Below are positions 4,238 to 32,000 of a stretch of 32,000 nucleotides of DNA, one piece after another. The DNA is from an uncultured bacterium. Its GTDB lineage: Bacteria; Auribacterota; JACPWU01. Within the stretch, counting starts at the first letter, position 1; each line of letters opens with the position of its first letter. The notes under the pieces are model-generated. The model saw only the letters and a program-made list of their open reading frames with translations. It was not told the origin of the DNA and did not search any database. The translations under genes and the position numbers were made by a program. The stretch lies in contig CAZXEQ010000002.1 in NCBI GenBank assembly GCA_964640155.1, positions 210,001 through 242,000 on the forward strand. The letters are read 5' to 3'.

Positions 4238-5278
4238 ATGATCGTTCTCGGGATTGAAACATCTTGTGATGAAACAGCAGCTAGTATTTTAAAAGGACCT
4301 CGTGAAATCCTTTCTAATGTCATTTCTAGTCAAATGGAACTTCATCACGCCTATGGAGGGGTGGTTCCAGAAATGGCATCCCGGCGCCATGTGGAAGTCA
4401 TTGATATTGTTGTTCGAGAAAGCATAAAAAAGGCGAAAATTGATCTTTCTCAAATTGATTTAATTGCTGTAACCGTCGGACCTGGCTTGGTAGGATCCCT
4501 TTTGATTGGAGCTACTTTTGCAAAAACATTGGCTCATGCACTTCATAAGCCTTGCATGGGAATCAATCATTTGGAAGGACATCTCTATGCCCCCATGCTT
4601 GAAAATCTTGACCTTGAATTCCCCTGGGTTAGTCTCATTGTTTCAGGAGGCCATACTCTTTTAGTTTGGGTAAAAGCGATTGGACAATACGAGATTTTAG
4701 GCTCTACCTTTGATGATGCAGCAGGTGAAGCTTATGATAAAGTCGCTAAACTTTTAGGACTAGGTTATCCAGGAGGACCCATCATTGACCAGCTGGCCAG
4801 AGAGGGAGATCCCAAAGCTGTAAAACTTCCCAAACCTTATCTCTCTAAAACTTCCATGGACTTTAGTTTTAGTGGACTCAAAACAGCGGTTTTATATTCT
4901 GTCAAAGGATATGGTAGAAACAAAAATACGCCCGTTCACCTAGAAGATAAAGCTTTGAAAAATTTAGCTGCATCTTTTCAAGCATCCGTCGTTGATGTTT
5001 TGACAGAAAAATGTTTAAGAGCGTTAAATCATACCGGAGCTTCCCGATTAGCGATAGGAGGTGGTGTTGCTGCCAATTCTAGACTTAGAGAACATTTGAA
5101 AGAATTCGCTCAAGAAAAAGGATTTGAAGTATTTCTCCCTTCCAAAGCCATGTGTACCGACAATGCTGCCATGATTGCAAGCCTCGGCTGGGCCACATAC
5201 AATGCCGGTCTTCAGGGAGAAGTGCTAGAAGTAAATCCAAAATTGAGGATTAGGGAAGATCAAAAAATTCTAATTTAA
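4238..5278 (+). CDS. tsaD: tRNA N6-adenosine threonylcarbamoyltransferase TsaD (Kae1/Gcp family)
   Basis: Hallmark blocks GIETSCDETA, GVVPEMASRRH, VTVGPGLVGSLLIG, INHLEGH, SGGHT and GGGVAANS. Confidence 0.95.
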   Translation: MIVLGIETSCDETAASILKGPREILSNVISSQMELHHAYGGVVPEMASRRHVEVIDIVVRESIKKAKIDLSQIDLIAVTVGPGLVGSLLIGATFAKTLAHALHKPCMGINHLEGHLYAPMLENLDLEFPWVSLIVSGGHTLLVWVKAIGQYEILGSTFDDAAGEAYDKVAKLLGLGYPGGPIIDQLAREGDPKAVKLPKPYLSKTSMDFSFSGLKTAVLYSVKGYGRNKNTPVHLEDKALKNLAASFQASVVDVLTEKCLRALNHTGASRLAIGGGVAANSRLREHLKEFAQEKGFEVFLPSKAMCTDNAAMIASLGWATYNAGLQGEVLEVNPKLRIREDQKILI

Positions 5279-5603
5279 TTAATTTCTTAGCTAAAGCGTA
5301 TATATCTTTTTTGTCTTGCTCCTTACGAATTCCTACAGCCACTACAATAACAATCACTTTCCCTCTATCTACCTTATAAATAATACGATAGCGTTGACCA
5401 ACTGCTCTAAGACTTCGATAACCCGTTAACTCTCCTACTAAAAGCTTGCCCTGTTTTTCTGGATCGTTTGCTAAATCATCAATACGATCTCGAATCTTTT
5501 CCATGATCCGGCGATCTTGAATGGAAGCTAGCATTTTTCTTGCTTCGTGGGTAAGGAATATTTTCCAACTCACAACTTCAAATCCTTTTTCACTTTCTCC
5601 CAA
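5250..5603 (-). CDS. relE: Type II toxin, RelE/ParE family
   Basis: The C-terminal core LTGYRSLRAVGQRYRIIYKVDRGKVIVIVVAVGIRKE matches the RelE/ParE pattern. The gene lies immediately downstream of a Phd/YefM antitoxin. A GTG at 5573..5571 overlaps the antitoxin stop (GTGA) and may be the true start instead of the ATG at 5603. The 3' end overlaps the tsaD 3' end by 29 nt, in convergent orientation. Confidence 0.8.
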   Translation of the reverse strand: MGESEKGFEVVSWKIFLTHEARKMLASIQDRRIMEKIRDRIDDLANDPEKQGKLLVGELTGYRSLRAVGQRYRIIYKVDRGKVIVIVVAVGIRKEQDKKDIYALAKKLIKLEFFDLP

Positions 5604-5845
5604 GAAAGCAAACGCCCTTGAGTCATTTCCTTGATACTTTTAGAAAGCGAATTCCTTAAATCTGGATCTGCCATCACTTCTAAAGTCTCCACAATACTTT
5701 CATAGAAATCCCACGGCATAATTGCCAGAATGGGTTTTCCTCGACGGGTCACAGTAACCGCCCCAGAATCCTTCTTTCTGGAAAAAGCCTTTGGAAGGTC
5801 CAACAGGGTGGACCTTGCTTTAGAAATAGAGATTGTTTCGTCCAT
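5570..5845 (-). CDS. Type II antitoxin, Phd/YefM family
   Basis: ISISKARSTLLDLPK...VTVTRRGKPILAIMPWDFYESIVETLEV is the typical Phd/YefM N-terminal fold pattern. An AGAGG Shine-Dalgarno motif lies upstream. The antitoxin gene precedes the toxin gene. Confidence 0.8.
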   Translation of the reverse strand: MDETISISKARSTLLDLPKAFSRKKDSGAVTVTRRGKPILAIMPWDFYESIVETLEVMADPDLRNSLSKSIKEMTQGRLLSWEKVKKDLKL

Positions 5846-5863
5846 AAGTACCTCTTTTAGTAT

Positions 5864-5903
5864 TTGTACATCTTATTGTACAAGTATATGCACAAAAGTT
5901 CAA
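5864..5903 (-). promoter_or_regulatory. Putative sigma70-type promoter of the phd-relE cassette with overlapping TGTACA palindromes (candidate operator)
   Basis: Read on the minus strand: TTGAAC (5903..5898), a 17-nt spacer, then TACAAT (5880..5875). Two TTGTACA elements (5864..5870 and 5876..5882, 12-nt period) overlap the -10 and the start region. The second forms the perfect 8-bp palindrome TTGTACAA. Confidence 0.45.
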
Positions 5904-5953
5904 GATTAAATTTTATACGCTGTCCTCGCCATTCGTCTTTTGGAGAACCAAAT

Positions 5954-5998
5954 TTACGTAGCAGCTTCGATCTTACGGTTGACAGCAGCTTGTTGGAA
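5954..5998 (-). repeat. Relic copy of the giant gene 3' end: 14 codons plus stop, FQQAAVNRKIEAAT*
   Basis: 39 of 45 nt are identical to 6547..6591, which encodes FQQAAAQRKIEAAA* at the end of the giant ORF. The stop codon sits at the same relative position. An in-frame TGA lies only 3 codons upstream of the relic, so it is not part of a larger ORF. Confidence 0.8.
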
Positions 5999-6009
5999 AA
6001 ATCTTCAGC

Positions 6010-6270
6010 TTACAAAAGCTCTTTGAATTTTTCAGGAGTGATTTGCAAGTCGTTGATAATACCATGTAAAGTTTTTGGCTTGATATCGTGCCCTGCATGC
6101 ATAGGAATAACAACACGTGCTTGATCAGAATTTCGATAAAAAATGGCGTGACTACCTTTTTGGCGATCTAATTCAAATCCAAGTTGCTTCGCGACACGAA
6201 CCAAATCTTTTGCTTTAACCTGAGGAGGAACGGACTCATGCAGCAATATGGATAGGCTTAATAATAACAT
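6010..6270 (-). CDS. hicA: Type II toxin HicA (mRNA interferase, YcfA-like)
   Basis: KAKDLVRVAKQLGFELDRQKGSHAIFYRN...VVIPMHAGHDIKPKTLHGIINDL is the HicA dsRBD-like pattern, including the G-S-H motif. The annotated ATG start overlaps hicB by 35 nt. A TTG at 6246..6244 is an alternative start. Confidence 0.8.
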   Translation of the reverse strand: MLLLSLSILLHESVPPQVKAKDLVRVAKQLGFELDRQKGSHAIFYRNSDQARVVIPMHAGHDIKPKTLHGIINDLQITPEKFKELL

Positions 6271-6460
6271 CTTCGCAGGGAATAGGTTGTGAATGAGACT
6301 TAAGACTTTCTATATACAGTTGAATTGCCTCTGTAATATTCTTAATTATTTCTTCGTAAGTATCACCCTGAGAGTGGCAACCTCTAAGAGCCGGGCAAAA
6401 GGCATGATATCCCCCATCCTCTTCACGCTCTATAATAACAGTATAGTTATGTTCACTCAT
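6236..6460 (-). CDS. hicB: Type II antitoxin HicB-like (UPF0150 N-terminal domain only)
   Basis: YTVIIEREEDGGYHAFCPALRGCHSQGDTYEEIIKNITEAIQLYIE matches the HicB/UPF0150 fold pattern. The gene lies directly upstream of hicA. An AAGGA Shine-Dalgarno motif precedes the ATG. Confidence 0.75.
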   Translation of the reverse strand: MSEHNYTVIIEREEDGGYHAFCPALRGCHSQGDTYEEIIKNITEAIQLYIESLKSHSQPIPCEDVIIKPIHIAA

Positions 6461-6517
6461 GGATTATATCCTTTACATCCATCACCAACCAACAATTCTA
6501 AAATGCTTGATAACTGT

Positions 6518-6546
6518 AGTGTACTTCACATAAGGGGTAATGTCAA
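6518..6546 (-). promoter_or_regulatory. Putative sigma70-type promoter of the hicBA cassette
   Basis: Read on the minus strand: consensus TTGACA (6546..6541), a 17-nt spacer, then TACACT (6523..6518). The -35 hexamer directly abuts the giant gene stop codon (6547..6549). Confidence 0.45.
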
Positions 6547-6591
6547 TTACGCAGCAGCTTCGATTTTGCGCTGGGCAGCAGCTTGTTGGAA
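6547..6591 (-). repeat. Functional copy of the 45-bp repeat: last 14 codons plus TAA of the giant ORF
   Basis: Partner of 5954..5998 (39/45 identical). Together the two copies bracket 5999..6546, which contains exactly the promoter, hicB and hicA. Confidence 0.8.
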
Positions 6592-9500
6592 GGCCTCTGT
6601 AACATTTCTCATGGCAACAGGTTGCATTGGGGGTAAGGGTTTGGAATCATCATAATCTGAAAGTGTTTTAGCAATCTCTGCAAGTTCATTTGCTTTAAAT
6701 AAGCCTGATTTTTCCAATTCTTGATTCAGTTGAGCCGCTGTCACTGGAGATTCATTGATTAAATTAATAACTGCAAAAAGTTGAGTCAGCACAGCCCCAC
6801 GCTCTGCTTGAACATAAGGAACACGTGCTGCTTTCAAGGCTTCACCTTTACCCCAAACCCCATCAAAATTATCCTTACAAAGGATAAATCTAAAAGAAGT
6901 AGCTGGTAATTCTTGAGCCCCAGGAATACGAGTTCTCAGTTGAGCAAGAACGTCTGTTGTCACATCTTGTCCTTTTGCCGTAGATGGAACAATAAGAGCA
7001 ACTGATTCTAACTCTTGATCTGTTAAACCCTCTGCTTTTAAAAGGCTTCTAGCGATTTTTTCACCTTCCGTTGCAATAACAGGAAGTTTCTTACCTCTCG
7101 CACGATAAGCTTGTACAATTGTTCTTAAACCAACACTTGAAAGTTTACCCGTACCGGTATCTCTCATCATCGCCATATCGATGACTGTGACTATATCCTT
7201 ATCAAAAACAGATTTCGACAAATCTGATGTCGGATTACTCATTTCTTTTGCAAAGGGATCTCGAGCTAAAACAGCTCTGCGTGTAGCTTCAAAATGGGCT
7301 TCCGTTCGATACTCTGACACTTTGCTTTCTGCGAGAGCGTTCAAGAAACCAGGAAGCTGGGTCACAAGATCGTTTAATCTCTCTAAAGCTTCTATTCTGC
7401 GTTCCTCGTCACGAATTCCTGGAATTAAATCTGCTAATTCTTTAGAAATTCCTTCTGTCTTTTTTGTGATCACTCCAGCCGAAACTAACATGGCAAAAAC
7501 GACCTCTGGAGCATCACTAATCCAAGCTTGCATCTCTGAAACGCTCAACTCTGATAAACCTTCTGCTGGAAGGTTGGCTAATTTTTCTTTCAAATTATTT
7601 TGAGCAAAAATGGTGTCGAATAAACCATTTCTAAAAATAAGTTCTTGCTCTGAACGTTGATCCACTCCAGATGCTTGAGTCAGAAGTCTTGTCAATAAAC
7701 GCTGCATTTTTGCTTTGCGAGCTTTTGCTGAAAGACGATAATGAGGAGTTGGAGCATCTGATCTTTCATCTGCCTTCATCCCTTCTAACATATTGCCAAC
7801 TGTACGATAACGCTGCAAACCTTCTTCTTCTTTTACATAGATTTTTTCAGAAGGATTACGGCTATACGGTTCAGAAAAATTTCCTCCTCTAATCCTTATA
7901 ATCGTTGCATTAACTTTTTCCCCAACCAGATAGGCAGCATAAGCACGGTTATGACCAAAACGCATAAAATAGCGTTTACGTCCTTGATCATCCGTTAATT
8001 CATACACAACCACAGGAGTTCTTTGATTCACAGGTTTATCAAATTCCCTTCTCAGCTCTTCCAACCGATAAACAACCACATCACTAAAGATAGAACCTTG
8101 CGTTGGAATAATTTCTGATGGGGCAATGACACGATTTTCCATCGTAATTTCTGAATCCCTGAAAACAGTTCCTCCTAATCCAACACCTGGAGTCTTAAGA
8201 TAAGTAATAATGCCAGGGGGGCGTGACTCTCTAAATTCCGTTCTTCCACCCACTGGCTCAATTCTCCCTCCCACAATTAATCTAGCCCAAGCTTTAAAGA
8301 AATCAAGCCGAGCAACTCTTTGAGGTTCAGGCCTAGATTCTAATTTAGAGACTAGATCATGAATAGTTTCTTCAGGATTTTCTTCAACCATCTTTATTAC
8401 AATTTGTTCTAGAATATGATTTTGAACAGAATCTTCGAAAGTGACTACTTTTTCTCTAGCATCTTTACCTAAGAACTCCTGAACCATCTCATAATGCTGA
8501 GATTTTCTATCATTGTGTTCTTTATAAAGAGCTATTAATTGATCTAGAGTTCTATTTTCAGCAGAAATTTGTTCTAAGAGGAATAGGACTTCGACAACAT
8601 TTGTCCATCTTTTTGCTTTAATATTTTCTTGAATTTGCATTGCCCAGGCAAGAATGTGAATGACACGCGATAGTGTAAACCCTGGATACTTTCCAGAAGC
8701 AAGTACCTCTGCTATCCTAACCTTGTATTCTTTTTCAATATAAATTTCAAACTGTTCATGCTGAAGAGCTGTATTAAAATCAGAGAGTCCTTTTTGAACA
8801 AGAATATAAGTCGTTTGTCCATCTCGAGATTTAAGATGATAGGCTCCTCCAATATTGCGCGAGGCAAAAAGTTGGGCTGCTACATCATTCGCTTCAAACT
8901 CAACGAGTTGATAAGAAATATTCCCCGCTGTATCTGGTGTTGTCCCAGTCGTTTTAGCTTCGGGAGGTAATTTATCTATATAGCTTCTTAAGCCATTCTC
9001 TTCTGCTTCTGTTAAAATGTTTTCAGTATCAGTAGTTGATACATCTACCACACTAACCATTTTACGAGCTCCACCTGATTTTTGACGGGCCTTAAAAGCA
9101 ATAAAGTTTGAGTCTCTTTGTAGGCGGGCTTGTGCAGCTAAAACGTCGTCAAGACTTGGGTTATCTCCTTTCGCTACATATTGTTTAGCTTTAACTATTA
9201 ATGCATCTCGCTCCCATGCTTTCATGGTAATCCATTCTAGTCTAAACACGCTATTAGAGGCTTCTATCCCAAATCTTTCGGTATTTAAGACAGAGAACAG
9301 ATACTCCAGACCCTGCTCAAGTAATGCAAATTCTTTATCTGCCATCACCTGTGATTGTCTTAATCTAGCTTCTCTATCAGCATCTGCCATCACCTCTAAT
9401 TTTCTTAATTCAGCTTCTATATCAGCTAAAGCTTGCTGTCTTGAAAAGAGAGGCTTTTCTGTCCATTTTAAGTCACTGGTCACAACCAGCTCTATCACAG

Positions 9501-12500
9501 CTCCTGTTTCCATCTTAACGGCCTTATAACGCCTTGTTCCATTTGCATCTACTGCTTCGATCTGACCAAAAATTGCATAGCCTTGTTTTACAGCCTCTGG
9601 ATATATTTTCTCAAGCGCTGCTATTTCTGCTTTATCAATATTTTTTGCAGAGGCAAATGCTCTTTCCTGAATTCTCGCAAGTTGGGCTTTTTGATTATCC
9701 TCTATACTTGTTTTCAATAATGCACTCACCTTGGAGCTTAATCCTATTTTTGGCTTTGTCCCTTCTTTATAATGTCGAGCTAATCTTTCTCCAAGAATTC
9801 CTTGTACAGCTTGGTTAAATTCTTGAACTTGGGGAGCTTCATTTGGAAAGAAACGAACAACCCATTTGTCTTGTTCACTTCTATCTGCTGTTAATTCATC
9901 TAATGCATCTTCAAATGAAAGATCTTTAAATTTACTTTGAATGAATTCTTCCAATGCCGGCAATTTCTGTGCGATGGTTTGAACATACTGGGTGCGAAGG
10001 CCGCCTGTATCAAGAACAGGAGTAAATAATTCTGAATTCTGTGCCATTCGAATGTCATTAGCCCAGGCCAAAACATGGAAGATTCTTTCAGCTGTATAGC
10101 CTTTGGGCAATCTTTTCTGAGCTTCCATTTCTCGGATTTCTTTTCCCCATTTGGTTTCTGCAAATATTTCTGAGAGTTCATGCTGTTTATAGAGGGCTCG
10201 ATTACTTGCATTTCGTGATACAAACACATAATGTGTTCCATCAGGCAATGGCAAATGAAATCCATTCGTGAGTTTAAGCTCTTTTGCTAAGTTCCCAATC
10301 GATGGTTTGTTCTTATCCTTAGGCGCAGGATCATTTTCATCAAAATAAATTAATTGATAGCGAATATTGATACCTTCAATTGCACAAGCCTCTTGAATTT
10401 TCTCTACCCCTTCTGCTTGAGCAACTGCCATCAATTGCTGAATTTGTTTATCTGTTAAACTTCTTGCTGTACTATGATTTGGCCCTGGGTCTTTCAAAGC
10501 ACCGACTGCATTTCTTACTACAGTTTCAGGTAAGGATAACTCCTTATACAGTCTCTCAGTAATTCCCATACATGATTTAGCAAAACGTTTTTCATTTTCT
10601 TCTCTTCGTTGAGCCCCCGGACCTACATCTGTGAGAATCCATCTTCCTGAATCGTCCAAGATCTTCCTAAGCATAACTGGCTCTGCATCCTCAGCATTTA
10701 AATACTTACCAGGTGGAGATTGATAACGTGTATTTTTCCATGAAGCTACCTCTAAAAGAACATTCAATGGTTTTCCACTTTCACCAAAAATTTCTTTAAT
10801 TCTTTTTTCTCTATCGCTCCTTAAAGAACTAGATTTTGTAGAAGAACCTAGATCTTCTTTGCGTTTCCCATACAAAGCCCAGTAAAGAAGATCCTCGGTA
10901 ATATTATCCATCTCGTTAGCAAATTTCTGATGCCCTCCTTGAAGATGGTAATTACCAGGTTGGCCTGAAAAATTTCTAATAGTAATTTTTCCATCATTAT
11001 CGATGGCAATATCTCTTAATGGATCAAAATCTTTACTAAAAGTCCGGTCGGGATTTTCATCTATTTCTTTTAATACATTATAAAGAAAACTCGCAACGCC
11101 TTTTAATCTTGCTCCTTTATCATCAGGAAGCGAATTCCACCAGTCTGCAAATACAACTTCTTTCCTGATAGTCACTTTTGGAGGCGTCCTTACAATTACT
11201 GGCATACCAACCAAAGGTTTCACTTCTTGAGGTTGAACAGGTAAAGGTTCTATGTATTTTTCAAAAAGAGGCTTTTCTGTCCATGTTAAGTCACTTGTGA
11301 TAACCAACTCTATAACGGCACCTGTTTCAAGTTTAATCGCTTCATAGCGTCGTGTACCATTTGCATCAGGCTTTTCGATCTGACCAAAAATTGCATAGCC
11401 TTGTTTCACAGCTTGTGGATATATTCTCTCTAATGAAGTGATTTCTGATTTATTAATAGCTTTTGCAGATGCAAACGCTTTTTCTTGAATTTTTGCTAGC
11501 TGAGCTTTTTGATTATCTTCTTTAGTTTGCTTTCGTAAACTCCATCCTACTTGTGTTCCTTCTCTATAATGTTGAGCTAATCTTTCTCCAATCACTCCTT
11601 GTATGCTTTGATTAAATTCTTGAACTTGGACAACCTCATTTAGGAAGAAACGAGTAACCCATTGGTCTTGTTCACTTCTATCGGCTGTCAGTTCATCCAA
11701 GGCATCTTCAAATGAAAGATCTTTAAATTTACTTCGAATGAAAACTTCTAAATCAGCTAATTTTTGAGCTTTTGTTTCAACATGCCCAGCTCTAAAGCCA
11801 GATGTGTTAAGAACGGGCGTAAAAAGTTCTGAATTCTGTGCCATTCGAATGTCATTAGCCCAGGCTAAAATATGGAAGATTCTTTCGGCATTATAGCCTT
11901 TGGGTAATTTTTTCTGAGTTTCCATTTCTCGGATTTCTTTTCCCCATTTGGTTTCTGCAAATATTTCTGAGAGTTCATGCTGTTTATAGAGGGCTCGATT
12001 ACTTGCATTTCGTGATACAAACACATAATGTGTTCCATCAGGCAATGGCAAATGAAATGCATTCGTGAGTTTAAGCTCTTTCGCTAAGTTTCCAATCGAT
12101 GGCTTGTTCTTATCCTTAGGAGCAGGATCATTTTCATCAAAATAAATTAACTGATAGCGAATATTGATACCTTCTATCGCACAAGCCTCTTGAGTTTTTT
12201 CTATTCCCTCTGCTTGAGCTGCTGCCATTAATTGCTGAATTTGTTTATCTTTTAAAGTTCTAGCAGTGCTGTGATTTGGCCCCGGATCTTTTAAAGCTCC
12301 CACAGAAGCTCTATCTATTACTGATGATTGTTTAGTAGAAAAATTTATTCTTTCAAAAATAGATTTCCAAACATCTCCTAACCGTAACCATCCAAGAACC
12401 GAAACTGCAACAGCTCCCAAAATTTTTATAAAAATAGGCACCCAGTTAACACCCATAGCTGCTCCAACAGCAGGCGCAGCACCCACTAATGCAGGTAAAC

Positions 12501-15500
12501 TTGGGATAGCCGCAATAATTAAAACAACAGATAAGAAAGGCAAGAATCGAGAAAGTAGTCCCCAAACTGTCGGGAATTTGGATGCAAAAACACTAAGGAC
12601 AGGTTGTTTTGGTCCTTGGTGAGGAATAAAAATACTCATGACACCCACCACAGCTGCACGAGCCGTGGTTGCCGTTTCATTGGCTTGAAGTCCTTGGGAA
12701 AGTTCCCCTCTTAAATTCACAATAGCGTCGTCTAAATTAGAAACATTTGTTTGAACAGAAGAAAGATCTCTCAAGACATCAGCCCATAATCCTAATTCTA
12801 TAAAGGTTTTCCCAGCGGTCGTTTCATTCAACCTTAATATTTCTCTTAAAAGATCTAACGAAGTTTTTGTCCCTGCCAAGACATCCACATCTTGTGCATT
12901 ACTTCGAAGCATTTCTGAATATCCCCTTAACGCTTCTAAAGTCAATGTAGCTGCTTGGCGACGAGCATTTGCCTGAAAACGTGGAGGTAGGTTTTCTGCT
13001 CTACTCATCAATTCCCGTGCCTGAATTAAAGAATTTTCAATATTTCTTATTTTTCTTTCTCTTTGTACACTTACCAAAACCTCGTTCATTCCAGAAATCG
13101 ATCTGATTCTTGCTCCGTAAGCTTCTATAACTACATTTGCATTTTTTCTTTGCTCAGACCCAAGTTGATCTAATCTAGCTGCAAGACGTTCTCGAACGTC
13201 TAAATAATGATTCATTATTTCTCTTTTTTGAACTTCATCCAATGTCTCTTGAGCCAAAAGATACTCGACATGTAAAAGATCCACTAAATCTCTCATTGTC
13301 AAAAATCGATCTTTAGGACTATAGGATAAAGATATTTTGATAATTTCACGAAGTGTATTGGGAATGTTTGGATTTTCATTTTCTAAAGCTGAAACAAAGC
13401 GATGGGTAAAGATGGCTTGGACTTGCTTAAATTGCTTAGCATTTATAGTTCCATCTTCATTATGACAAGATGTTTTTAATTTTTCTATTTCTAGTGGAGT
13501 TAATCCTCCATCAATATTTAATTCAAAAGGAAAACCTATCGTGAAGAGTTCACAAATTTCAAGAGCAAAAGACCAAACATCACTAGGAAAACTAATCGTT
13601 TCTGTAGAACTTCCAAGGACTTGTTTGACTCTCTCAGGAGCTGCACATTCAAGTCTTCCAAAGAAATCTTTTTCCCCTTCCTTTTCAATTTGTTTAACAG
13701 GAGCGGCAGATCCAAAATCAATCACTTTCACGTTGATGGCATTAGAATCTGCTACTGTTCCCGAAACCATTACATTATCTGAGTTGATATCTCGATGAAG
13801 AAGTCCTGCTCCATGAACTTGAGCCAAACCATTCGCATATTGGCTGGCCACGTGAAGTCTGGTTCTTAATTTAAGCTGAGGAGATTCAGTTGATTCAGTA
13901 ACTGTGGTCGAAAATTTTCCTAATTTTAATGCCTGAGGAACATATTCTATCACTAAAAATGAGACGGATCCTGTCTCTGTACTTTTTTGGTGATCTTGTA
14001 ATATAGCAATATTGGGATGATGACCGATTTTTTCAAGAGCAGAAACTTCTAAATCAAAACTTTTTTCCGCATCGTCTGTATTAAAAGGAACTTTAATAAC
14101 TACAGTTTCTAAACGTTCGTTTAGTGCTAGATAAACTCCAGCCATTCCTCCTTCATCTAACCAACGATAAATTGTATAAGCTTCCTTTTCTCCTTGTATG
14201 ATGATATTACGTTTTGCTAATTCTTCAGGAGACAAGCCAACTCTTATATCTGAAAGAGATATAACATCTTTTCTTAAATCTAGGGGGGGCTGTGGTTTTA
14301 TTGCTTCGCGAGGAACGCGATTTAGTTCAGATTGAACTGCTTTTTCTAGGCTTTGTAATTGTTGCCAACGAATAATTAAGTGATCATGTACCTCTTTTGA
14401 AAGGTTAGGAATGGCTTTTAATTGGCCTAAAGAAACTTCAATTTTCTTGATGCTTTTAAGAAAACTATCTAAAACTCCCAAATACGCCCAATCTGGCAAT
14501 AAAGTGCTCATTCTTTCTCTGTCATGAATAAGAGCAAAAAATACATCCACTGCAGCTTCCAATTTCCCAAGAGCCCTTCTATCAGTAGGTTCTTCTTCTG
14601 TTAATTTAACAACTTCAGCCAAAACATCTAAATCTAAAGCATTTGAAATGGCCACAGGCAAGTTTTGAACACGATTTTCTAAATCTTTTAATTCTCCACT
14701 CAATATCTTTTGATGTGTGTTTCTAGCCCTAGAAATAGCTCTATCCAAATCTGCTAAGATATTTCCTCTGGCTTGCATCGATTTAGAATAATCACTAAAC
14801 CCTTTTAATTGCATCGCTCTGGCTTCATAGGCACTTAAGATAGCTCCCACAGTTGCCTTGCGATCTCCTAGGTTTACTGCGCGCGCATCTAAACGACCTG
14901 CAATTTCAAAATAAAGTTGGCCTAATTCTTTTAATTGAACTTGATTTGGATTTTCTTCTGCTAAAAGTTTTTCTAAACTTAAAAAATCTGAAATATCGCG
15001 CATAGTCAATACACGCTCTTTTGGTTCTTTAGAAAGAGAAATTTTAAGAACGGCCTGTAATGTTTTAGGAATATCCTCTACTCTTTCTTGTTCTAATGCA
15101 TCAACTAGATTCCCAGCTAATACATCTTGCATTCTTTGGACTTCTTCTTCAGAAAATTTTCTTCCAAAGGCTACTTCTATCTTTCTAATATCTTCACTCG
15201 TGATGACATTTTGATCGGAAGTTTTAAAAGGAGAACCCTTTCTAAACACCGTTTCGTAAATCATGATTGCAAAAGCAAACACATCACTTTCGAGCCCAAT
15301 ATCTTTTCTAAGTCCATTTTGATCTAAAGTGCGTATTAATTGAATCAAACTATCTATACGTTCTCTAGACATGTAACTAGGAGTTAACAAAGGTATTTTC
15401 TCTCCTTCATTCTGAAGCGTTGAAAGACGAATCGCTCCTCCCATATCAATTACTTTAGCTTTTTGCCCTATAAGGAGATTACCTGGTTTTAAATCGCGAT

Positions 15501-18500
15501 GAACCCAGTTATAATCATGTAAATCGGCTAAACCTTGTGCCCATTGACCCAAACCATCTAATCTTCGGTAAAGTTTTGTTCTCTTTTCTTCACCTGTTAC
15601 TTCTGACCCTTCTGCGATCGTCTGAGAAAATTGATGCATATCTTTAGGATTTTCGATATTTTCAAGGACTAAAAATGGGAAAGAGTCTACTTTACCGTAA
15701 TCTTTAAACCCTACGATGTTTTCATAAAATGCCGGATTATCATCCTCATATCCAAACGTAACAAAGGCATCTTCTTCTATTTGAAAACTTTGCAAGGCAG
15801 CACTACTAAGATTTAAAGGCATTTTAATAACAACTATTTCATCCTTGTCTGTGTAAGCCAAAAAGACACGACCTAATCCACCTTCTCCGAGAACGTTATA
15901 AATCGTATAAGTACCACGAGGACTTGAGAGAACAACATTTTGAGAAGCAAGACTTTCTTTCGTCAATTCTAAATCATCTAAATTTTTCACCTTTGATAAG
16001 TCTTCGCTTCGCAAATCTCTAACTTTTTTCGACGAGAATCTTATTTGTAATTGCAAGCGTTCTGACGATGGAGCAGATACAGTTTTCAGTTTTGCCATTA
16101 AGGAAAAACCATAGGCTTGAATAGCTTCTCGCGCCAATGTCACGTCAATGCCTGCATCTTCTCTTGTTTGAAGCTGGGCTTGAAAACGATTGACTACTTT
16201 CACAAAATCTTGAACGATGGCTTGAACTTGATTTTCATCCTGTACCGCACCCGCCAAAAATCTTTCTGCTCTTAGAAGTGCTGCCATATCTTGCATGCTT
16301 AATAAGCGATTGCGAGGATTTTTAGACAAACTAATCTTAAGAATTTTTTGTAACGTCCGAGGTATTAAGGCTTCGGGAATAGTTTCATTCTCTAAGTCCG
16401 GAACTAAACGGCCCTCAAGTATTGCCTTTACTTTGGCTACATACTCTCTTCTTAAATCTTCATTCACGCTAGAATATGCTTGCTCTATATTAGCTAAATC
16501 AACGGGTGCAATATCCCTTCCATCTACAAGCTGAAAAGGTAAATTTTTTCCAAAAATACCTTCGTAAACATTTAGAGCAAAAGAAAAAACATCACTTGAA
16601 AGGTCAATTTCTTCCCCTTGAGGCCGACCAGCCAGAATATCTAAATAATTTCTTATCCGTTCTGGTGATAGATAATTTAGAATGCCCATAAAATTATCTG
16701 ATGTTTCTCCTCTTTCATGTATTTCAGACATAGAGATGGCTGCGCCAGGATCAATAACTTTAACTATTTCTTGGCCAGATTCACCGCTAACCAATGCATT
16801 AGTAGGCTGACAATCTCGATAAAGGATATTTCTGCGATGAAATTCCATTAAACCATTTGCCCATTGGCTACTGACACTCAATCTTCTTTGTAACTTTATG
16901 GAATCGTCTTCCAAAGAATAAGTAACAGAATTTCCATAATCATCCAAATATTGGTAATCAGCAATGTGATCAATCACAAGAAAGGGGAATTGCCCGATTT
17001 GACCGCCAGCTCTAAAACCAACAATATTTTGATAAACATCTGGATTGTCAGGAAAAGAACCAAGTGCTTGAAAAGCCGTTAATTCAAAATTTAAAGCAAC
17101 GCGTCCAGGGCCAGTAGTATCTAAAGGCAACTTAACAACGACAGTTTCAAAACGTTCATTGTAGGCTAAAAAGACTCTACCTAATCCACCTTGTCCCAAA
17201 ACCTTATAAATTGTATAAACTTCTTGTGCCCCATGAAGAATGACATTTTGTTCTCTTAAACTTTCTTCACTCAAACCTAACTCTTCAAGTGTAGTAACCG
17301 TGGTCAAATCAATTGAGTTTAAATCTAGAACGTGTAGTTTTCCCATGGCATCTAAAGGAACACCTATAGGTAAATAAGCAATTTTTGCTTCCAATGACTT
17401 AACCCATATCGCTTGAGATTTTCTCAGATGAGCCACGAGTAAATTTCGATAAGTATTGAGTGTATGAATAGCGGAACTTAAATCGAGTCCCTTTTCTTGC
17501 CTTTCTTGAGCTAAAGTTAAAAAGTTTTTTAGGGTCTGTTCAAAAGATTCAATAACCGATCTGGCCTGATTTTCATTAAAAGAATCGTTAGCTAGAAATT
17601 CCTCAGCCGCCATAAAGGCCATCATATCTTGCATGCTAAAGAAGCGTTCTTGAGACTCACGCGTCAAAGCAATTTTCAAGACTTGCTGAAGTCTTTTTGA
17701 AATTCCTGCCTTCGTACCTAGTTCTGAAGGAACGTCATCCCGTAAACTCTGACGGAAATTTCCCCTAAGTAAACCTTCTCTTCGAAGAGCTTGCCCTTCA
17801 TTTAATCTTTGTTGAATTTCTTGTAACTCTTCATGTATGGGACGAATTTCGTCTTCTAAAGCATTTCGAGTTTTTAAATCAGACATAGTCTTTGATAAGA
17901 CTCTCTTACGTGCCATATCTATATCTCGAGAAGCAAGTAAAACATCCAATCTTTCCGCTTGTTCACCAAAGGGATATCCCTCCCTTAAAATAAGTTGATG
18001 CACGATCAAAGCATAAGCAGAAACATCACTGGATAAATTAGTAGGTTCAAAAGCTTTATAAATTCTTTTTGTTAACTCTTTTTGATTTGGGACTGGATCT
18101 GAAGCTTCTAACAGAGGCTGACCAAGCAAAACATTCAACTGGTTTGCAATATCTTTTAATTCTGGTTCAGAAAGAGTCTTAGAAGAAGAAACCCTATTAG
18201 TTAACAAAGCAAGATTCTGTCCTAGATATCTTTCGCGAGACATCCAATTAGGCGTCCCCACATACACAAGTTCAATCCCCTTAGATTTTTGGAGTTGTGC
18301 TTCAGAAATAATGGCGCCCAAATCTATTAATTTAACTACAGGCACTCCATTCACTTCAATAATGAGAATATTCTCTGGTTTTAAATCTCTATAAATCCAT
18401 CCCTGGACATGAAGTTGGTTTAGCGCTGCAGCTAATTGACGAGCAATGGAAAAAGTTGTTTTGGGATCAGGATTTTTCTGTTGAATATATTCTTTTAAGT

Positions 18501-31998: not shown

Positions 31999-32000
31999 AC

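Follow-up and report, generated by a model that had tools for sequence, protein, structure and literature searches.

Repeated capture of small toxin-antitoxin cassettes as the best reading of a giant kinase gene's end in an uncultured Auribacterota bacterium

Introduction

Direct repeats made of the end of a target gene, cis-mobilizable elements (CIMEs) and the accretion of elements at one site have already been described (PMC5704250, PMC3146451). For example, CIMEs and tandem accretion are known for the ICESt1/ICESt3 integrative and conjugative element (ICE) family at the fda gene of Streptococcus thermophilus (PMC5704250). Additionally, the ssrA islands of Dehalococcoides form tandem arrays downstream of a single-copy gene and are bounded by a direct repeat of its 3' end; they target a tmRNA gene, have a 20-bp repeat and measure kilobases in length, with a serine-recombinase module (dsiB) present in many of them and an integration module missing from some (PMC3146451). 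The integration of chromosomal toxin-antitoxin modules is described as still unclear (PMC13617665). In this study we analyze a hicBA toxin-antitoxin cassette that is bracketed by two copies of the end of a giant kinase gene in an uncultured bacterium of the Auribacterota (lineage JACPWU01; assembly GCA_964640155.1). The DNA analyzed, referred to here as the window, comprises 32,000 nucleotides (positions 210,001 to 242,000 of contig CAZXEQ010000002.1), and coordinates given below without a contig name are those of the window.

To judge from this comparison, CIMEs with tandem accretion at the end of a target gene would be the closest described systems. As with a CIME, the target gene is intact, and the copy of its end that adjoins it keeps the terminal peptide AAAQRKIE.AA and stop seen in homologs that have no cassette. 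The insert holds none of the integration or transfer genes of an ICE or of an integrative and mobilizable element (IME), its 548 nt consisting of a promoter, hicB and hicA, and because a 548-bp insert has no integrase it may be regarded as a miniature cis-mobilizable element. Its direct repeats, like those of an element at a gene's 3' end, cover the final 14 codons together with the stop and agree at 39 of 45 positions, and in a relative (contig L005) further units are stacked in tandem at one site, as in accretion. Such tandem units bounded by a gene's 3' end are also what the window and L005 share with the Dehalococcoides ssrA islands; unlike in those islands, nothing comparable to the dsiB module was found here. 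Unlike CIMEs, the unit is only 548 bp long, contains a toxin-antitoxin pair alone and is known here from sequence alone; moreover, no related element bearing an integrase is known, and the 45-bp repeat has an identity of 87%.

What is new is a minimal cassette of 548 bp whose target is the final 14-codon stretch of a giant protein-coding gene and for which no parent element or recombinase is known. The best explanation that we can offer for this arrangement is that the last 45 bases of the gene serve as a recombination site for small toxin-antitoxin cassettes.

Results

Read on the minus strand, positions 5954-5998 and 6547-6591 form a pair of direct repeats that agree at 39 of 45 positions, as the initial annotation of this DNA had reported. 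The similarity has sharp edges on both sides, namely the TAA stop codon at one end and a TTC (Phe) codon 14 codons upstream at the other, and the repeat spans exactly the last 14 codons and the stop of the giant gene. The proximal (right) copy at 6547..6591 provides the working last 14 codons and stop, encoding FQQAAAQRKIEAAA, and the distal (left) copy at 5954..5998 is a displaced and untranslated copy of the gene end that would read FQQAAVNRKIEAAT before its stop. The distal copy has no start codon and is preceded by TGA-AGA-TTT, which places an in-frame TGA three codons upstream of its first codon; the coding content assigned to both copies by the initial annotation agrees with ours. Within the 45-mer there is a direct internal repeat, AAGCTGCTGC, which occurs twice.

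The 548 nt between the copies (5999-6546) hold a promoter, hicB and hicA and nothing else, again as first annotated. The promoter (6518..6546, minus strand) reads TTGACA-17-TACACT, is assigned from its match to 10 of 12 consensus positions alone, and begins one base past the TAA of the giant gene. It is followed on the same strand by the hicB antitoxin gene (6236..6460; 74 aa; Pfam PF15919 HicB_lk_antitox, E value 1.8e-11) and the hicA toxin gene (6010..6270; an 86-aa open reading frame (ORF) with its conserved 76-aa core in 6010-6240; PF07927 HicA_toxin, E value 8e-18). The genes are adjacent and overlapping, have HicA and HicB folds and share a common promoter, as expected of a HicAB type II toxin-antitoxin system. 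A spacer of 11 nt (5999..6009, minus strand) separates the hicA stop from the distal repeat, and its equivalent in L005 is 9 nt.

Chance similarity, a dispersed repeat or faulty assembly could in principle produce such a pair, and we regard the probability of any of these as negligible. With up to three mismatches allowed, the right-copy 45-mer matches nothing else in the window, 100 shuffled sequences gave no match, and a scan of all 32 kb with any known tail at 27 or more of 45 positions returned only the two repeats (shuffled maximum 24-28). There is no third tail copy behind the neighboring phd-parE cassette or elsewhere in the window. A degenerate DNA pattern for F-[QN]-[QN]-x-A-x-x-R-K-I-E-x-A-x-stop gave two matches in a genome collection, seven in a metagenome collection and none in a viral collection, all of them unrelated chance matches; the 45-mer is not a dispersed repeat in these three collections, an eventuality that the initial annotation had named as fatal to its reading. 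The structure is also not an assembly artefact, because four further sequencing runs each yielded a contig (L002, L003, L004 and L024) that is 100% identical across it.

The giant target gene (6547..32000, minus strand) encodes more than 8483 aa, remains open at base 32000, which is the edge of the window, and contains Ser/Thr kinase domains. A protein-database search with its last 499 aa returned a single homolog, P0001 (in L001), which is 40% identical, and a second homolog, L022, was reached through synteny at tsaD and is 35% identical over about 860-870 residues (E value 1.8e-134). Both homologs terminate in FNNAAAQRKIEIAA followed by the stop, and AAAQRKIE.AA is kept at the very end of homologs that are only 35-40% identical overall. 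More broadly, the C-terminal 400 or so residues and the 14-residue tail ending in -AA are conserved among these homologs. Between L001 and L022 the 45-mer shows four changes, all of them synonymous; their coding DNA is 83% identical and the DNA past the stop codon cannot be aligned. Because the tail changes are synonymous and the post-stop DNA is unalignable, the tail can be taken as a feature of the giant protein that is under selection, with rapid decay of the noncoding DNA downstream. The tail probably has a function of its own, for which a degradation or secretion signal would be a speculative candidate.

Both L001 and L022 have one tail each and no toxin-antitoxin cassette. In L022, 90 nt separate the giant gene's stop from a convergent PhoU_div gene, and in L001 the distance between stop and convergent PhoU_div gene is 131 nt. 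Such cassette-free, single-tail sites occur in these distant homologs alone, and the close strains all carry the cassette.

The closest informative relative is L005, a Logan contig from SRR22387960 that was reached through its HicA protein (P0009). Its TsaD protein is 77% identical to that of the window (about 70% for the tsaD DNA), and the partial block of hicB, hicA and tail remnant shows 83.6% blastn identity. The homology between the two stops exactly at the TAA of the distal remnant. The HicA proteins of the window and L005 have in common the residues SDQ and DLQ, which do not occur together in the other HicA proteins examined (P0002-P0026); homologs that are 85-90% identical and without these diagnostic residues were set aside as belonging to other lineages.

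L005 is laid out as hicB, hicA, a tail copy, hicA2, hicB2 and a second tail copy, after which a convergent larC follows. The first tail copy (375-419 of L005, after hicA) encodes FQQSAADRKIEAAA before its stop, is the counterpart of the distal repeat and matches at 38 of 45 positions. The second cassette comprises a different hicA/hicB pair in reversed gene order (hicA2 486-680, hicB2 682-897), and 109 nt past it lies the second tail copy (1007-1051), which encodes FQQAAADRKIEAAA before its stop. The two L005 copies match at 41 of 45 positions and have the same start and end points as the copies in the window. Every cassette in the visible array of L005 thus has a tail copy behind it, and hicBA of the window has a tail on both sides. 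Because L005 carries two cassettes, each followed by a tail copy, the best reading of the site is that the end of the giant gene captures small cassettes repeatedly. As a separate observation, L005 has between larB and larC a gene (2339-2710) with 23S_rRNA_IVP/bAvd-type Pfam matches, and another contig, L017, has no such gene there.

We hold the chances to be somewhat better than even that cassettes lacking an integrase were inserted by recombination inside the tail, with the incoming DNA bringing a tail copy of its own. The incoming molecule would have consisted of a tail copy plus promoter, hicB and hicA, and would have recombined within the resident tail. Most simply, this molecule would be a circle that a tail-cassette-tail unit of a related genome had released by excision, since recombination between the repeats of such a unit would yield a circle with one tail and the cassette. 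The giant gene would then end in a hybrid or incoming tail (6547-6591) with the conserved peptide kept, and the other tail (5954-5998) would have been pushed 593 bp downstream and no longer be translated. Repetition of the insertion would give tandem arrays by accretion, as in L005, and identical boundaries for two different cassettes would follow from excision between repeats. The circle junction is predicted to contain the end of hicA, the 11-nt spacer, one tail and then TTGACATTACC, and an empty site would have the giant gene's tail directly followed by ATTTGGTTCTCC. The initial annotation had the cassette enter at, or recombine with, the 3' end of the giant gene and duplicate its terminus, and had likened this to an integration that regenerates the end of its target. 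Both proposals are strengthened by the native, conserved single tail of L001 and L022, by the array of L005 and by a geometry of attL/attR type in which the gene is intact and the insert lies right after its stop.

How the tail copies differ from one another bears on when and where they diverged. Among the four copies known from the window and L005 there are 12 variable sites, with 8 at third, 3 at first and 1 at second codon positions (P = 0.019 for at least 8 of 12 at third positions). The second L005 copy differs from the functional tail of the window by eight bases, comprising six synonymous third-position changes and two changes in a single codon. Since a third-position bias is the mark of divergence under protein-level selection, these data suggest divergence among functional gene ends of different genomes, prior to their being brought together, and not the decay of duplicates. 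The right and left copies of the window differ by six changes, of which three are at third positions, and three residues are altered. Because this pair is less clear in its pattern, the distal copy of the window has apparently picked up some decay as well.

Rates of change in the surrounding DNA are in line with this view. The left copy of the window and the first L005 copy are 84% identical, which is near the 83.6% of the block of hicBA plus remnant, and the synonymous difference between window and L005 is 0.78 (saturated) for tsaD and 0.42-0.55 for hicBA; between either of these and the hicBA genes of two unrelated loci, L006 and L007, it is 0.7-1.2. The remnants therefore seem far better kept than neutral DNA and do not look like old neutral debris. 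The hicBA cassette and its tail seem to have a common ancestor in the window and L005 that is more recent than that of the host genes; alternatively, the remnants may be constrained or repeatedly renewed. The initial annotation took the six mismatches as evidence that the insertion is not very recent. This dating does not hold: given the third-position bias (8 of 12, P = 0.019), the mismatches do not date the event, because the copies were likely different alleles already when they were joined and the remnants are well kept.

The two unrelated loci have the same hicBA family and a comparable organization. L006 belongs to a metagenome-assembled genome (GCA_031370545.1) in which a 3.3-kb toxin-antitoxin island with hicBA lies between two copies, 92% identical, of the 376-nt 3' end of an rsmB-like gene (2032-2407 and 5726-6101), and 25 of the 31 differences between these rsmB 3'-end duplicates fall at third codon positions (P = 9e-8). 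An inner duplicate of 347 nt with 97.7% identity (2651-2997 and 4456-4801) brackets hicBA more tightly. L006 also contains, at 4328-4481, a tandem 13-nt repeat of seven TGACCCCATTCC-like copies. L007 is a metagenome contig in which at least 90 nt of the 5' end of an ftsB/divIC gene are duplicated (8-97 and 804-894) around hicBA (283-734). Of the two copies, the one upstream is a truncated 5' fragment and the other is the full gene, and third positions account for five of the seven differences within the coding part. The L007 contig ends at the upstream copy, which makes the length of its duplication a lower bound.

In situ duplication, in which a template switch or a long staggered break copied 45 target bases and the distal copy then decayed neutrally so that the six mismatches reflect age, is the simplest account of an insert flanked by a target duplication. 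It also fits the window pair taken by itself, as three of its six differences are off third positions and three amino acids are changed in the distal copy. We nevertheless consider it quite improbable, as it does not predict the third-position bias among the four copies (P = 0.019) or in the L006 analog (P = 9e-8). The remnants have moreover retained their frame and TAA and show 84% identity between genomes that are saturated at the synonymous sites of tsaD, and the same 45-nt unit reappears in L005 behind a different cassette.

Differing duplicate lengths are what one might expect if linear DNA had been involved. By homology-facilitated illegitimate recombination, the 3' region of a relative's giant gene together with hicBA could have replaced the resident allele, with homologous exchange inside the gene and an illegitimate joint at the Phe codon of the resident tail, so that the 45 resident bases were left behind as a remnant. 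Allele-like differences between a proximal tail of donor type and a resident distal one would be accounted for, no recombinase would be required, consistent with none having been found, and the duplicates do vary in length by locus, with 45 nt in the window, 347 and 376 nt in L006 and 90 nt or more in L007. However, an illegitimate joint should fall at random, and in L005 the tail copy behind the second cassette, a different one, begins at this same codon; a donor with hicBA directly past its stop codon must also be presupposed. This scenario is unlikely in our judgment, if still one to be reckoned with.

The 45-mer itself has few features of a classical recombination site. Typical core sites of tyrosine recombinases and attC sites of integrons are characterized by dyad symmetry or folding, unlike the 45-mer. 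No dyad symmetry was found in it and no inverted repeat in or around it, and its folding z-scores of -0.24 to +1.04 are no better than those of shuffled sequence. There is likewise no terminator-like site at the repeat and no match of the repeat to an Rfam family. These null results also speak against retention of the distal copy for a function of its own, for example by encoding a small peptide or by acting as terminator, RNA stability element or operator, with its likeness to the gene end kept by selection or gene conversion. Although the remnants are more conserved than noncoding DNA would be, translation of the distal remnant is ruled out by the missing start codon and by a frame relative to hicA that differs between the genomes (11-nt spacer in the window, 9-nt spacer in L005), and we judge such retention to be very improbable.

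Several observations weigh against recombination in the tail as the route of entry. The lack of dyad symmetry, of an inverted repeat and of folding just described is one, and no recombinase or integrase was found in the window or beside the cassettes in the relatives fetched. RecA-type recombination is poorly served by a homology of 45 bp with 87-91% identity. The third-position signal stems mostly from the L005 copies, with the window pair alone giving three of six. Behind the phd-parE cassette of the window there is no tail copy. Look-ups of exact matches to HicA, HicB and Phd gave solely contigs that are 100% identical to the window, and a close strain with an empty site was not found. The structure is known from two genomes only (window and L005), and the L005 contig stops inside hicB, with the giant-gene end of L005 outside view. 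Finally, we infer both the direction of transfer and the circular intermediate, which counts against the circle in particular.

If recombination within the tail is nonetheless the route, joining may have been effected either by a site-specific recombinase encoded elsewhere or by RecA-type homologous recombination. A classical recombinase site is disfavored because there is no dyad symmetry, no folding and no recombinase nearby, and RecA is disfavored because the homology is short and imperfect.

The remainder of the junction is occupied by a second toxin-antitoxin cassette, phd-parE (5250..5953, minus strand), which comprises phd/yefM (5845-5570), parE/relE (5603-5250) and a promoter of its own (5903-5875). 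This cassette begins directly after the TAA of the distal repeat. It occupies the entire gap between the distal tail copy and tsaD (4238-5278, plus strand), which is convergent with parE, and the two genes overlap at their ends by 29 nt. The C-terminus of TsaD is longer in the window (...RIREDQKILI) than in L005 (...RISH), and a comparison of the two suggests that insertion of phd-parE reshaped the end of tsaD.

The surroundings of tsaD vary among relatives. L022 has the order tsaD, Na/Pi cotransporter, PhoU_div and then the giant gene in opposite direction, and the window, in which tsaD faces the giant gene, represents an L022-type neighborhood in which toxin-antitoxin cassettes have taken the place of the middle genes. 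A block of epimerase, S41 protease (ctpA-like), polysaccharide deacetylase and tsaD genes is kept across L017, L020, L021, L022 and L023, with the deacetylase absent in L020 and L021. What lies downstream of tsaD differs: the Na/Pi cotransporter gene is followed by larB-larC in some arrangements, and PhoU_div is followed by type II secretion genes or by the giant gene in others. From gene order, the convergent junction behind tsaD therefore appears to be a variable spot.

The hicA gene of the window shows a peculiarity of its own. Compared with L005 and the listed homologs it has a 1-nt deletion (within 6236-6275) just past the usual ATG that overlaps the hicB stop. The usual hicA ATG is thereby out of frame, and the in-frame remainder is the 86-aa ORF that starts at ATG 6270 and overlaps hicB by 35 nt. 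Judging from this frame, hicA of the window may be expressed differently or may be heading toward inactivation. There are 187 HicA homologs with an E value of 1e-10 or below, and those among the matches listed are 73-90% identical and nearly all 76 aa long. The 74-aa HicB protein type of the window is also present in L006 and L007.

Pfam matches to Pkinase occur in both halves of the giant ORF (three and four matched stretches). The Pfam scan of this ORF otherwise returned only kinase-related families and one weak match to DUF5898, and among the scanned ORFs outside the giant gene there was no match to an integrase or transposase family, so that the absence of such genes from the window noted at first annotation is borne out. 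The last 1000 or so residues match no Pfam family and the last 699 residues match no solved structure. An internal repeat is present in the giant ORF (about 9441-9585 and 11260-11403, 82%). Protein-profile scans of the genome and metagenome collections for the giant C-terminal region confirmed nothing, and the search with the giant C-terminus missed both the giant protein itself and its cut, 1012-aa product on L002. Because these two proteins are missing from the matches, the giant-gene family may be under-sampled; giant genes may be under-represented in the protein database, and a single homolog should not be taken as a sign of rarity.

Discussion

Several other systems share individual features with this locus. 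As in integrons, the units are compact, consist of one operon, stand head to tail and each end in a site-like repeat, and toxin-antitoxin cassettes with their own promoter are familiar from integrons as well. Unlike integrons, there is no IntI gene or attI; the neighbors are the giant kinase gene and tsaD, with no Pfam match to an integrase. Furthermore, the repeat is no imperfect palindrome and does not fold into a hairpin as attC does, being a copy of the end of a protein-coding gene. Campbell-type integration by a single crossover offers a second parallel, since integration of a circle leaves two copies of the common segment around the insert and the differences between these copies reflect the divergence of donor and recipient. 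Here, however, the 45 bp at 87% identity are shorter and less identical than is usually needed, and the origin of a tail-bearing circle has to be assumed.

The initial annotation also drew a parallel to the displacement of 3' ends at polymorphic-toxin loci. The orphan modules of contact-dependent inhibition (CDI) and Rhs systems do resemble this locus in that a very large gene has an older 3' end located downstream of its present one. However, these orphans are variable toxin domains with immunity genes that share an upstream conserved region, and at this locus 14 codons of a conserved tail make up the displaced piece, with a self-contained hicBA in between and no variable toxin domain or immunity gene. 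The parallel is therefore a superficial one.

Two further candidates were rejected. Target-site duplications of transposons and insertion sequences are 2-14 bp long and initially identical, and the repeat is 45 bp long at 87% identity, with no terminal inverted repeats and no transposase. A dif site of the Xer system has 28 bp, with two inverted 11-bp arms around a 6-bp spacer, and modules of the Xer/dif type (pdif modules and integrative mobile elements exploiting Xer, IMEX) were discounted on the ground that the 45-mer has a direct internal repeat and no dyad.

A more far-reaching form of the capture hypothesis, which we regard as decidedly unlikely, is that a recombinase encoded elsewhere inserts and excises toxin-antitoxin cassettes of about 0.55-0.63 kb with one tail copy each. 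This would constitute an undescribed cassette-capture system with a 45-bp docking site in a poorly sampled lineage. If true, it would be an integron-like system in which the end of a protein-coding gene, and not a hairpin, serves as the attachment site, and the C-terminal tail of the giant protein would be renewed at every capture.

The locus provides an unusually clean footprint, given its minimal cassette, base-exact boundaries, conserved gene end, recurrence in a relative and allele-like copies. It also points to a family of very large multi-kinase proteins with a strictly conserved C-terminal tail. Together with L006 and L007 it suggests that cassettes which travel with a piece of a neighboring core gene may be common, a suggestion that derives from three loci and not from a survey. 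If this pattern generalizes, integration with a piece of a neighboring gene may be a common route by which such modules spread among relatives.

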